From the NCBI GenBank assembly GCA_022614955.1, contig JAKEHP010000027.1, positions 16,555-80,554 on the forward strand: a stretch of 64,000 nucleotides of DNA, given 5' to 3'. Both the position numbers and the translations under genes were made by a program. This document shows, one piece after another, positions 9,386 to 60,753 of this stretch (position 1 is the stretch's first letter; each line of letters begins with the position of its first letter). The notes beneath the pieces were generated by a model. It was given only the letters and a program-made list of their open reading frames with translations. It was not told where the DNA came from and searched no databases. The DNA is from Candidatus Methylomirabilota bacterium (GTDB lineage Bacteria; Methylomirabilota; Methylomirabilia; Methylomirabilales; JACPAU01).

Positions 9386-9880
9386 ATGAAGAGTCCCAGA
9401 GTGTTTCTGCTATGGGGATTGGCCCTCCTCTTGGCCGGGGTGTTCCTTGTCCTTCCGGCGCCTGCTGGCCAGTCCTTGCCGGCGACGCCGCTTCCGCTGC
9501 TTGAGGGAGGCACGCTAAACCTGCAGAGTTTGGAGGGGAGCGTCGTGGTGATCCGCTTCCTGGCTTCGTGGTGACCGCACTGCCAACGGGAGGCTCCCGT
9601 TTTCGAGGAAGTGTACCAGCGGTATAAGGGGAAAGGCGTGGCTTTCGTGGGGATCTTTGTCGGGGATACTGAGGCCAACGCGCGGGCGTTTGTCAGGACT
9701 CACCGCGTCAGCTTTCCGAACGGATATGACTGGAAGTTGGCCGTGGCCAAGCCGCTGGGTTACCGGGCGATGCCCTACACGGTGGTAATCTCAAGGCAGG
9801 GAGAGGTCGCTCACCGGTTTCACGGGCCAGTGTCCAAGGCTGACTTGATCACCGCCATTGAGCGCCTTCTCACAGGTTAG
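9386..9880 (+). CDS. exported TlpA-like thioredoxin/redoxin with in-frame UGA (predicted Sec) in a UxxC motif
   Basis: ORFs 9386..9574 and 9611..9880 share a frame across a single TGA (9572-9574). Read-through gives FLASW-U-PHCQREAPVF, the canonical WCxxC position. Signal peptide at the N-terminus. AGGGAG RBS. Confidence 0.75.
9585..9601 (+). promoter_or_regulatory. candidate bacterial SECIS hairpin
   Basis: Perfect 7-bp stem AACGGGA / UCCCGUU with loop GGC, starting 10 nt after the UGA. Confidence 0.5.
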
Positions 9881-10025
9881 CCGGTCCAGCGCCTCGCTCC
9901 GTGTGTGACCGCCGATCGCCGGCAGAGGAGCAGGCGACCTGGAGAAACTAAAACGTGCATCCCTTTGACCGGTCCGATTGAGCCGAAGCCACCCTTGGGC
10001 TCGTTGGACCAGGGGAGGTGAAGCC

Positions 10026-11402
10026 ATGAGGAGGAAGAGGGAGTTTGTCCTGCTCGTCTTCTTCTCGCTCGTAGCGGTGGTACTCTTACCCGCCCCATTA
10101 GGAGCGCAAGTGGCACAAAAGCCATCGGTCGACTCCCTGGTGGCCGACCTGACCCACCCCGATGGCGCCGTCCGCACGGAGGCCTTGAGCAGGCTGGGAC
10201 AGCTCGGCGATCGATCGGCCATTCCCGCCCTGATCGAGCTCTTGCGGTTTGATCGGGCCCTCGAGCTCAACGTCCCCCCGGTGCTTGAGCGCCTTTCGGG
10301 ACAGAAGTTTGGCGATGATTGGGCGAAGTGGGTGGAGTGGCTCGAGAGGCAGAAGAACCTTCGGCCGAATCCAGGGTTTGTCGCGTGGAAGGGGACCCTG
10401 TTTCAGCTCATCGATCCCGCCTTTGGGGAGTTCTTATACCCGGGCGTGAAACACCGGGTCCGCATCGAGGAGATCGTGTGGGGCGGGGTGATCAAGGACG
10501 GGATTCCGGCTCTCACCAACCCGCGCCACGTCAAGCCGAGCGAGGCCACCTACCTGACCCCCGATGAGCTGGTCCTCGGCCTCTCCATCAAGGGGGACCA
10601 TCGCGCCTATCCATTGAGGATCATGGACTGGCATGAGATGGCCAACGACGTCGTCGGAGGGACTCCCCTGACGATCTCCTACTGAACGCTGTGTGGATCG
10701 GCGATCCACTACGAGACCACCGTGAGTGGTACCACATACGTCTTCGGATCCTCAGGGTTTCTCTTCAGGAGCAACAAGCTCATGTACGATCAGAGCACCA
10801 AGAGCCTCTGGCACAACCTGACCGGGGAACCTGTCGTCGGCCCGCTGGCTGACAGCGGGATCAAGCTGAAGGTCGGGCCGGTCGTGACCACCACCTGGCG
10901 CGACTGGCTCCAGGCTCATCCCGATACCGTGGTGCTGGACATCAACACCGGCTATCTGAGGGACTACACCCCGGGCAGACCCTACGGCCAGTACTTCGCG
11001 AGTCCCGACACCATGTTTCCTTCCTCGCCCCGGAGCGATCGGCTGAAAACAAAAGAGCATGTGTTTGTGCTGAGGCTCGGGGGGAAGGCGAAGGCGTATC
11101 CCCTGGAGGTGCTCGCCAAGGAGCCGGTGGTGAACGACGTCTTGGCGGGGACGAACCTCGTCATCGTCGCTACTGCGGCCACCCGGACCGTCAGGGCCTT
11201 CGAGCGAGGGTCACACCGGTTCCGCCGGGGGCAGGGGGTGATGGAGCTGGTCGACACGGCGACCGGCGAGGTCTGGTCCGTCCAAGAAGAGGCATTAGTA
11301 AACCCCGCCAGCGGGCAGCGGCTCGCTCGGCTCGGTGGTCACCTGGCCTACTGGTTTGGCTGGTTCGCCTTTTATCCGCACACGGAGGTCTATGGGAAGT
11401 GA
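10026..11402 (+). CDS. DUF3179-family protein with N-terminal signal peptide and HEAT-like repeat, and in-frame UGA (predicted Sec) in the family CPLC motif
   Basis: ORFs 9978..10685 and 10722..11402 share a frame across TGA 10683-10685. Read-through gives [19 protein letters not shown] where DUF3179 proteins have (T/S)YCPLC. The rest ([42 protein letters not shown]) matches the family. Confidence 0.7.
10693..10709 (+). promoter_or_regulatory. candidate bacterial SECIS hairpin
   Basis: Perfect 7-bp stem GUGGAUC / GAUCCAC with loop GGC, starting 7 nt after the UGA. Confidence 0.5.
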
Positions 11403-31917: not shown

Positions 31918-32976
31918 TCAGGGGACCACCTGGATCTTCCCCGCCGGCCCCGCCGTCACCTCGCCGATCCGCGCCGCAGCCAGCACCCCTTTGGTGTTGC
32001 TCAAGCGCCGGAGCATCTCCTGACTCTTCGCCTTCCCCACGGCCATGAGGAGGCCCCCCGAGGTCTGGGCGTCGGAGAGGACGAGGCGGACGTCCTCGCC
32101 CATCCCGGGAGCCCATTCCACGTTCCCCTCCAGCGATTTCAGGTTCCGGCGTGTCCCGCCGGGGCAGATCCCCTCGCGGACCAACTTCCAGGCCTCGGGG
32201 AGGACGGGCACAGCCCGAAGCGAGATCGTCGCCCCCACCCGGCTGGCGGCGGCGACCTCGCGCAGATGACCCAGGAGGCCGAACCCGGTGATGTCCGTGC
32301 AGGCGTGAACACCCCCGACCGCCTCCATGACCTCGGCGGCATAGCGGTTCAGCGTGCTCATCGTGGCCACCGCCAAATCCACCGTGGCCGCCTCCACCTT
32401 CTGGCGCTTGATCCCGGTGGTGATGATCCCCATGCCGAGTGGCTTCGTCAGGATGAGATCGTCCCCGACCCGGGCCCCAGCGTTTGTCAAGATCTTTTCG
32501 GGATGCACGACCCCCGTTACCACCAGGCCGTACTTCGGCTCGGGGTCGTCAATGCTGTGCCCGCCGACGATGGACGCCCCTGCCTCCACCACCTTGTCTG
32601 CCCCTCCCTTCATGATGGCCTCCAGGACCGACAGGGGGAGGGTGCCGGTGGGAAAGCCGACCACGTTCAGGGCGAACAGTGGGCGCGCCCCCATGGCGTA
32701 GATGTCGCTCAGGGAGTTGGCCGCCGCCACCGCCCCGCAGGCGTAGGCATCGTCCACGACGGGGGTGATGTAGTCCACCGACTGGACGATGGCCAGCTCG
32801 GGTGTCAGGCGGTACACCGCCGCGTCGTCGGAGGTCTCCGGCCCCACGAGGACGTTCGGATCGGTGATCTTGGGCAGCTGGCCCAGGACCTGGGCCAGGT
32901 CCGACGGACTGATTTTGCAGGCTCACCCCGCCCCGTGGGAGAGACTGGTGAGCCGGACGGGCTCCTCGGTGGGCAT
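31918..32976 (-). CDS. selD: selenide, water dikinase (selenophosphate synthetase) with in-frame UGA (Sec) in the N-terminal glycine-rich loop
   Basis: Track ORF 31918..32847 starts inside the gene. Extending upstream in frame across TGA (32925-32923) to ATG 32976 (AGGAGA RBS) gives MPTEEPVRLTSLSHGAG-U-ACKISPSDLAQVL...GPETSDDAAVYRL, the SelD GxG(C/U)xxK motif. Confidence 0.85.
32886..32902 (-). promoter_or_regulatory. candidate SECIS hairpin in selD
   Basis: 7-bp stem GGACCUG / CAGGUCC with loop GCC, starting 20 nt after the UGA. Confidence 0.4.
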
Positions 32977-42439: not shown

Positions 42440-42448
42440 GAGAGACGC

Positions 42449-43465
42449 GTGCTCAAGGCGCTCATCCTGGGACTGCCGGTGGGGCTGGCCTTCGGCTACG
42501 CCCTGCAGCGGGGACGCTTCTGCCTGAACACCGCCTTCCGGGATGTCTTCCTCATTCGCGACTCGACGCTGGTCCGGGCGTGGGCGCTGGCGCTGCTCAT
42601 CCAGATGGCCGGGGTCCATGCCCTGGCGGGACTCGGCTGGTTCCAGATGGGGATGGCCCCCTTCTGGTGGCAGGCCGCGCTCCTGGGCGGCCTCGTCTTC
42701 GGCTGGGGGATGGTCCTCTCGGGCGGGTGAACGACGGGCGTCTCCTACCGGTCGGGTGAGGGGATGGTGGCCTCGTGGATCAGCCTGGTGGGATTTGGCC
42801 TCGGGATCATGATGACGAGCGGCGGCCTCCTCGAGCCCCTGCAGCATCGGCTGCGAACCGCGGTCATCGGCGAAGGCCCACCGGCCACGGCGGCCAGCCT
42901 GCTCGGTCTCAGCCCGTGGATCGTCATCGCGGCCTTCGCCCTCCTGGTCGGCTTCTGGTTCCTCCGGAGGCCGGCCAGGGTGGCGTACCAGGGAGGCTGG
43001 ACCTGGCCTGTGACCGGACTCGCCATCGGCCTCATCGCGCTTGCCGCCTGGCCGCTCTCCGCGCTAACCGGCCGGCAGTTCGGGCTTTCGGTCACGGAGC
43101 CCGTCTATTCCTATATGCGGGTGGCCCTCCTGGGCCAGGTGGAGGCCCTGAACTGGGCGAGCGTCATGTGGCTGGGGATCCCCCTGGGCTCGTACGTCTC
43201 GGCCCGCTGGCACGGCGAGTTCAAGTGGCGGAGCCCTGGGCCCCAGCGCCTCCTCCAGGCCCTCGGGGGCGGGGTGGTGATGGGAATCGGCGCCGCGATC
43301 GGCGGCGGTTGTACCGTGGGACACAGCCTGACCGGGTTTTCCACCCTGGCTATGTCGAGCATCGCGGCGACGGCCGGGATCGTAGCGGGGGTCTGGTCCG
43401 CGACCCTCATTCTCTTTGGTGACGTGCTGGTCGGAAGGAGCGTGCGACATGCGGAGCGAGCGTAG
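42449..43465 (+). CDS. YeeE/YedE-family (TsuA-like) sulfur/selenium transporter with in-frame UGA (predicted Sec) replacing a conserved Cys
   Basis: ORFs 42449..42730 and 42764..43465 share a frame across TGA 42728-42730. Read-through gives VLSGG-U-TTGVSYRSGEG (family motif GGCxxG). The second-half motif GGGCTVGHSL retains Cys. About 9 TM in total. Confidence 0.7.
42742..42763 (+). promoter_or_regulatory. candidate SECIS stem-loop in the YeeE-like gene
   Basis: CUCCUACC / GGU(G)AGGGG stem with one bulged G and loop GGUCG, starting 11 nt after the UGA. Confidence 0.35.
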
Positions 43466-60637: not shown

Positions 60638-60753
60638 TTCTCATCTAGAGTGGCTGAGGGACTGGCCCTGTGAAGCCACGGCAACGGGCGGCCGCTGTGT
60701 GAGCCGCCGACGTGCCAACTCCTGCAGTCGGGGGACCGGCTGAGAGATGAGAA
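60638..60753 (+). promoter_or_regulatory. SAM-I (S-box) riboswitch aptamer
   Basis: UUCUCAUC-UAGAG-UGGCUGAGGGACUGGCCCUGUGAAGCCACGGCAAC...GUGCCAACUCCUGCAG...GAGAUGAGAA matches the S-box consensus (AUCnAGAG, GAGGGAcUGGCCC, UGAAnCC, GCAAC, GUGCnAAnUCC). P1 closes as UUCUCAUC/GAUGAGAA. Confidence 0.9.

Follow-up and report, generated by a model that had tools for sequence, protein, structure and literature searches.

A DUF3179 gene of a Candidatus Methylomirabilota bacterium with a probable selenocysteine codon and a compact SECIS-type hairpin

Structure of the DUF3179 gene

We analysed a 64,000-nt stretch of DNA from a Candidatus Methylomirabilota bacterium (GenBank assembly GCA_022614955.1, contig JAKEHP010000027.1, positions 16,555 to 80,554). 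This whole stretch is called the window here, and all positions refer to it. It carries a gene for a DUF3179 protein in which a single in-frame TGA is very probably decoded as selenocysteine (Sec). The open reading frames (ORFs) 9978-10685 and 10722-11402 belong to one frame, whose sole interruption is the TGA at 10683-10685. That the two ORFs are parts of one split frame had been proposed in an original prediction made from the DNA letters, and translation confirmed it. The complete gene (10026-11402, +) encodes 458 residues including Sec220 and ends with its own TGA stop codon at 11400-11402. A Shine-Dalgarno-like sequence, GGAGGUGA (10014-10021, +), was read from the sequence 4 nt 5' of the ATG at 10026, and direct reading found no comparable Shine-Dalgarno sequence ahead of the GTG at 10722. 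In the public, NCBI-derived gene calls, the gene appears as two pieces without a product name.

By inspection, the protein starts with MRRKRE, followed by a 15-residue hydrophobic core and then PAPLGA and QV. This N-terminus is probably a cleavable signal peptide of the Sec (secretion) type (10026-10106, +), with cleavage predicted after LGA. The N-terminal helix in the AlphaFold model of P0001, a homologue described below, agrees with this call and with the export proposed in the original prediction. A region of HEAT/PBS-lyase-like repeats follows at residues 30-76 (10113-10253, +). HEAT_PBS matched with 23.2 bits (cut-off 20.9), whereas HEAT_2, at 25 bits, remained under its cut-off of 27.7. 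When the homologue profile was searched against PDB sequences, the only matches were to solved alphaRep/HEAT proteins, all in the N-terminal region, with E values down to 3e-15. The N-terminal HEAT-like repeat had likewise been recognized at the outset. The DUF3179 domain itself covers residues 157-453 (10494-11384, +) and consists largely of beta-strands in the model. After substitution of C for U, PF11376 matched these residues over profile positions 1-292 of 292 (E 2.8e-83; 280.2 bits against a cut-off of 27), and the match crosses the TGA unbroken. Because it covers the whole profile, both sides of the TGA are DUF3179, as had been claimed.

Conservation of the TGA codon

The best 120 full-length database matches, 46-57% identical to the window protein, were aligned with it. 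All 120 carry Cys in the TGA column, within a near-invariant (A/S)-Y-C-T-L-C; the window motif, Y-U-T-L-C, falls in the same column. The UGA (10683-10685, +) therefore occupies the first position of U-T-L-C, where the homologues have an invariant Cys. The original prediction had placed it at the first Cys of a CPLC motif. The position was right, but the wording of the motif did not hold: since the close relatives read (A/S)-Y-C-T-L-C rather than CPLC, T-L is the norm of this subfamily.

A second search used only the N-terminal half as query, and its best 120 matches were taken. All 120 have only 193-241 residues, and 117 of them end in SY or AY, one residue ahead of the TGA column, indicating that these relatives were truncated by gene callers at the same stop codon. 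Among loci fetched from genome and metagenome collections, the codon in this column is TGA in 55 and TGT or TGC in 106, giving Sec/Cys pairs. Past the TGA, every complete TGA locus keeps the frame open for about 238 more codons. Comparing the window gene with its Sec-type relatives, the median ratio of nonsynonymous to synonymous divergence (dN/dS) was 0.255 downstream and 0.234 upstream of the UGA, at a dS of about 1.1. These similar values indicate that the downstream half is translated and that selection acts on it as on the upstream half.

In a neighbour-joining tree, 48 Sec-type sequences formed a pure clade without Cys members, and two further Sec-type sequences, L132 and L134, fell outside it. 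These two loci (L132:2243, Ga0194121_10028688; L134:3577, Ga0194128_10014700) encode divergent Sec-type DUF3179 proteins with the motif U-T-L-C-Q-A-G-I and may represent an independent Cys/Sec switch. At two other Sec-type loci, L119:788 and L122:404, the motif reads U-T-L-S, the second Cys having been replaced by Ser (TCA).

The TGA is also kept in GCA_975200995.1 (contig CDHKUS010000014.1) and in the Logan assembly of SRR16971104, which match the window with 99.93% and 99.8% identity, respectively. Over 20.66 kb, 11 mismatches and one 3-nt indel separate the window from the former contig (L001), so that the window comes from a near-identical strain or assembly. Proteins identical to those encoded on this contig carry the name 'candidate division NC10 bacterium' (MCI0369949.1, MCI0369963.1), NC10 being Methylomirabilota. 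Among genome loci, the nearest Sec-type ones bear the labels Candidatus Methylomirabilota or Rokubacteria, with a single Limnocylindria. Two metagenome-assembled genomes (MAGs) among the fetched loci, L003 and L080, are titled 'uncultured Enterobacteriaceae bacterium'; their DUF3179 proteins are typical of soil Methylomirabilota-like or other lineages, and these labels look unreliable.

A SECIS-type hairpin downstream of the TGA

A perfect 7-bp hairpin of the selenocysteine insertion sequence (SECIS) type, GUGGAUC-GGC-GAUCCAC (hairpin 1; 10693-10709, +), starts 7 nt past the TGA, where the original prediction had described it, and is present in the minimum-energy fold. Its conserved core comprises 5 bp, with 10695-10699 paired with 10703-10707 and the loop GGC at 10700-10702. 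This core, GG(A/G)UC...GA(U/C)CC, is fully paired in 53 of the 55 TGA loci versus 1 of the 106 Cys loci. It is not a by-product of the encoded peptide, because the same peptide is written with other codons in Cys genes. When only genes with the identical peptide G-S-[A/G]-I are compared, each of the 38 Sec genes has GGA (Gly) and AUC (Ile) and forms five of five pairs, whereas GGA or five pairs occur in only 1 of 53 Cys genes.

The Sec clade consists of three subtypes. In one of them, UTLCGSGTL (14 sequences, of which 10 are distinct), both sides of the middle pair are altered, from A-U to G-C, giving GGGUC-GGG-GACCC. Across the alignment, 28 distinct sequences have A-U and 10 have G-C at the pair formed by columns 15 and 23, and at that formed by columns 12 and 26, 21 have U-A and 2 have A-U. 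The latter two are the U-T-L-S sequences of L119 and L122, in which the Cys-to-Ser change also turns the outer U-A pair of the hairpin into A-U. The RNAalifold consensus is exactly the 5-bp core. The element is conserved with covariation. In addition, it lies where synonymous variation in the Sec genes dips most strongly: codons +5 to +12 past the UGA rank first among 303 windows, with a synonymous divergence of 0.104 (median 0.429), the lowest of the whole gene. The same codon window is unremarkable in the Cys genes, at 0.538 versus 0.553 (rank 96 of 262).

A second hairpin, ACCAC-CGUGA-GUGGU (hairpin 2; 10716-10730, +), also belongs to the minimum-energy fold, with its loop 35 nt past the UGA, and sits partly inside the synonymously constrained stretch. 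It is 80.5% paired across the alignment, is not in the RNAalifold consensus and is absent from the UTLCGSGTL subtype. Because of this absence, hairpin 1 was taken as the conserved core and hairpin 2 as a possible accessory, perhaps the second part of the element in some subtypes. The two divergent sequences outside the clade, L132 and L134, are without hairpin 1 and have a hairpin of their own, GGCAU-CGUGU-AUGCC, with the loop 20 nt past the UGA.

The bacterial SECIS (bSECIS) model describes an apical loop of 3-9 nt, a stem of 4-16 bp, G in the first two loop positions, an energy of at most -7.5 kcal/mol and a UGA-to-apical-loop spacing of 16-37 nt, and some bSECIS elements lie outside it (PMC13188914). 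Hairpin 1 resembles this model in lying directly downstream of the UGA and within the coding region, in its 3-nt loop and 5-7-bp stem (PMC13188914 Fig. 2A), in having G within the first two loop positions (the loops of the element are GGC, GGG or AGG) and in its energy of about -9 kcal/mol, the centroid with hairpin 1 alone having -9.3 kcal/mol. The UGA-to-loop distance of hairpin 2, 35 nt, falls within the bSECIS range, but this hairpin is not conserved in all subtypes.

Evidence for selenocysteine decoding in the genome

An in-frame TGA screen of the window returned 246 candidates, mostly spurious in this GC-rich DNA, and only those backed by homology were retained. The window contains selD, encoding selenide, water dikinase (31918-32976, -). 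Its ORF 31918-32847 (-) matched TIGR00476 with an E value of 5.5e-105 (351 bits against a cut-off of 125), and when this ORF was extended upstream, an in-frame TGA (32925-32923) appeared within ...LSHGAG-U-ACKISP, which is where SelD canonically has Sec or Cys. It is followed downstream by two hairpins with GUC loops. The presence of selD indicates that the genome makes selenophosphate, and a Sec-containing selD implies working Sec insertion.

A further gene encodes a YeeE/YedE transporter (PF04143, Sulf_transp; approximately 42440-43465, +), with a TGA at 42728-42730 at the middle conserved Cys (VLSGG-U-TTG) and a long hairpin with the loop GGUCG 3' of it. YeeE/YedE is already a listed selenoprotein family, with the motif GUxSG (PMC13188914). 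Including a TlpA-like gene described below, all four of these genes (DUF3179, selD, TlpA-like and YeeE/YedE) have downstream hairpins with G-first loops. Very large selenoproteomes are reported for Methylomirabilota, with 63 selenoprotein genes in one MAG (PMC13188914). UGA also serves as an ordinary stop codon, ending 11 of the 36 genes in the window, the DUF3179 gene included, so the genetic code is not a reassigned one.

Several observations weigh against the SECIS reading. On the single sequence, hairpin 1 is not unusually stable (z = -0.7 to -1.6; 14-44 of 200 shuffles fold equally well), and its significance therefore rests on the comparative data. Those data are themselves restricted in that the main Sec-type genes are one clade, so that the contrast of 53 to 1 does not represent 53 independent events, and the compensatory changes probably amount to only two events. 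Moreover, the UGA-to-loop distance of 14 nt misses the bSECIS range of 16-37 nt by 2 nt, and a scan of the whole window at Rfam gathering thresholds returned no SECIS family, the only match being a SAM (S-adenosylmethionine) riboswitch. Of the Sec machinery, the absence of which had been named as a refutation in the original prediction, the Sec-containing selD was found in the window; selA and selB were not seen within its 64 kb, and ARAGORN found no tRNA gene there, hence no tRNA-Sec.

Two other explanations of the TGA were considered. The locus might be a pseudogene, or a TGC or TGT might have been misread as TGA in sequencing or assembly, and the splitting of the gene into unnamed pieces in the NCBI-derived calls would fit either. 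Yet TGA stands in the same column of 55 loci from many samples and is retained in the two other assemblies, which bears on the sequencing error that had been raised as a possible refutation. As for decay of the gene, related genomes show no further disruptions, the frame remains open for about 238 codons downstream in the complete loci, and dN/dS there is like that upstream. RNA-level conservation directly after the TGA and the three other canonical Sec genes in the window speak in the same direction. Recurrence, the open frame, dN/dS and the independent assemblies exclude pseudogene and sequencing error, and we give this explanation almost no credence. It is also conceivable that the UGA acts mainly as a stop, yielding a product of about 219 residues (HEAT repeats and a partial domain), with the downstream half made from the GTG at 10722 or left untranslated and read-through being a minor, selenium-dependent event. 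Sec insertion in bacteria is never fully efficient, and the hairpin lies nearer to the UGA than the usual model allows; both would be in keeping with such an arrangement. However, the GTG has no Shine-Dalgarno sequence ahead of it, the break falls inside one compact domain modelled with a predicted local distance difference test (pLDDT) score above 95 on both sides, and the residue at the break is the family's most conserved Cys. Besides, the downstream half experiences the same purifying selection as the upstream one and always keeps the same frame. We consider predominant termination very improbable.

Decoding of the UGA at 10683-10685 as selenocysteine is accordingly what we regard as highly probable, the locus being one intact gene for an exported DUF3179 protein. 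The candidate selenoprotein of the original prediction was borne out by the Sec/Cys pairs, the hairpin, the selection on both halves and the Sec-containing selD in the window. During translation, the hairpin would recruit SelB with Sec-tRNA(Sec) to the ribosome, and the UGA would then be read as Sec, although the same codon ends the gene at 11400-11402.

The adjacent TlpA/ResA-like gene and the genomic neighbourhood

Directly upstream of the DUF3179 gene lies a gene for a TlpA/ResA-like protein of the thioredoxin fold (9386-9880, +). It contains an in-frame TGA at 9572-9574 (FLASW-U-PHC), at which it too was split by gene callers, and a 7-bp hairpin, AACGGGA-GGC-UCCCGUU (9585-9601, +), with the same GGC loop as hairpin 1. 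Its NCBIfam matches were to ResA/StoA/DsbE-type families, all under the curated cut-offs. The surroundings of the fetched DUF3179 loci were searched for TlpA neighbours by tblastn, and a TlpA-like gene adjoins DUF3179 in 8 of them, including L001 and L002, which are near-identical copies of the window locus. The window and a Rokubacteria MAG (L009), both of the NC10/Rokubacteria group, have a Sec-type TlpA beside a Sec-type DUF3179. Several Alphaproteobacteria have a Cys-type TlpA beside a Cys-type DUF3179. The upstream protein is a possible redox partner of the DUF3179 protein.

Further from the gene, a conserved ORF of about 111 residues was seen approximately 3 kb from DUF3179 at L091:6837-7169 (-) and at 9 other Sec-type loci. 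It is similar to the C-terminal portion of an AhpC/TSA-like protein and could be a further case of a gene cut short at a Sec codon. On a long contig with a Sec-type gene, the neighbours were unrelated.

The rest of the window was annotated by Pfam scans. Positions 38900-62400 hold a dense sulfur-assimilation block with an Rrf2 regulator, three PALP (cysteine-synthase-like) genes, a ThiS-ThiF fusion, two double-rhodanese genes, an NMT1-type ABC transporter, sulfite/nitrite reductase, HemD and ATP sulfurylase. The SAM riboswitch (60638-60753; 92.8 bits) is located upstream of the last PALP gene.

Relationship to known selenoprotein families

DUF3179 (PF11376) has been listed as a prokaryotic selenoprotein family with the motif UxxC/T in 2022 (PMC9312934; example MBW1804167.1) and again in 2026 (PMC13188914; example MDJ0986319.1). 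Both lists credit Zhang and Gladyshev 2007 (PMC1976440) for it. The original prediction had implied that the family was missing from published selenoprotein lists, and this novelty did not survive. Since DUF3179 is already listed, the window gene is a well-supported member of a known selenoprotein family and not a discovery. It shares with the published members the same Pfam domain, a Sec that comes first in the xxC motif and Cys-type homologues, and the UxxS variants found here resemble the published UxxT variant. This comparison was made with the list entries, and the combination of HEAT repeats and a signal peptide describes the subfamily seen here. The published lists give no description of the SECIS element, the size of the clade or the gene context, which were worked out in this study. 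The analysis adds how large and coherent the Sec clade is, a compact hairpin with short spacing and covariation, the pairing with a TlpA-like selenoprotein and the split gene calls.

The TlpA/ResA/DsbE-like selenoproteins (UxxC or UGC), exported thiol:disulfide oxidoreductases of the thioredoxin fold, offer a second comparison. Like them, the DUF3179 protein is predicted to be exported, has a U-x-x-C motif with the Sec in the N-terminal position and has Cys-type homologues. Unlike them, it has a beta-rich domain of about 300 residues without a thioredoxin fold and without a significant match among solved structures. The DUF3179 protein may work as these proteins do without belonging to their family.

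Structure and possible function

An AlphaFold2 model was made for P0001, the closest full-length Cys homologue, which is 57% identical to the window protein. The model (pLDDT 92; predicted template modelling score, pTM, 0.85) starts with an N-terminal helix, followed by a helical HEAT region and by a beta-rich domain of approximately 300 residues. Foldseek returned only recurring weak, partial matches, to Rieske-type beta domains and to HEAT repeats. For the DUF3179 protein, Pfam and NCBIfam gave no match of the thioredoxin type. In the literature searched, we found no function for DUF3179, a term that appears mainly in selenoprotein reviews.

Our best guess is that the exported DUF3179 protein provides a selenol/thiol redox centre, which the TlpA-like protein might recycle, a reading that we hold tentatively and at somewhat less than an even chance. 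It was favoured because the protein is exported, the Sec comes first in the motif and the UxxS variants keep the Sec without the second Cys. After cleavage of the signal peptide, the protein would work outside the cytoplasm. There, Sec220 would be the attacking selenolate of a selenenylsulfide/selenol-thiol couple and Cys223 the resolving residue, and the adjacent exported TlpA/ResA-like U-x-x-C protein may keep the DUF3179 protein reduced. A redox mechanism has several results against it. The P0001 model is not of the thioredoxin fold and had no Foldseek match in the PDB at E <= 1e-3. TlpA adjacency was seen in only 8 of about 160 loci, of which 6 are independent of the window's own. When the flanking ORFs of the approximately 160 loci were clustered, no widely conserved partner emerged, only lineage-specific clusters. 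Finally, most of the data would fit a metal-binding CxxC equally well.

In this alternative, the main rival of the redox reading, the gene encodes a genuine selenoprotein whose U-x-x-C and conserved His residues bind a metal or metalloid (e.g., Cu, Hg, Zn or Co) without redox cycling, and soft metals would be bound with higher affinity owing to Sec. Of the His residues of the family, His203 and His439 are invariant and His298 nearly so, and the listed UxxC selenoproteins include the metal handlers MerT, a cation-transporting ATPase and a CobW-like protein (PMC9312934). At 16 alphaproteobacterial Cys-type loci, DUF3179 stands beside a CobW-like GTPase and cobalamin genes, a neighbourhood that is, however, limited to one lineage. 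The weak similarity to Rieske-type metal-binding beta domains (3gce, with a probability of 0.84, 2qpz and 3c0d) came with E values that were all above 0.1, none reaching the significance threshold, and the U-T-L-S variants keep the Sec yet drop one ligand. Overall, we judge metal binding without redox cycling to be unlikely, although it merits consideration.

The redox reading can be carried further, and we offer the following extension as speculation that is rather doubtful. DUF3179 would be a new extracytoplasmic selenol/thiol oxidoreductase of non-thioredoxin fold, recharged by a dedicated TlpA-like selenoprotein, with an unusually compact SECIS of 5 bp and a G-rich triloop lying nearer to the UGA than the bSECIS model allows. 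If true, this closeness would explain why standard SECIS searches missed a large clade centred on Methylomirabilota.

Implications

These results do not overturn current knowledge, the family being already listed. In the databases, at least 117 clusters of relatives stop short at this codon, and recognizing the U-T-L-C codon together with the hairpin would repair many mis-annotated proteins in soil and groundwater metagenomes. Moreover, a compact hairpin with a 14-nt spacing is a small data point for widening the search models for bacterial SECIS elements. For the family itself, Sec is retained at the first Cys of its only invariant CxxC across a deep clade, the UxxS variants included, and this retention is a pointer to the reactive centre of a domain without known function or solved structure.

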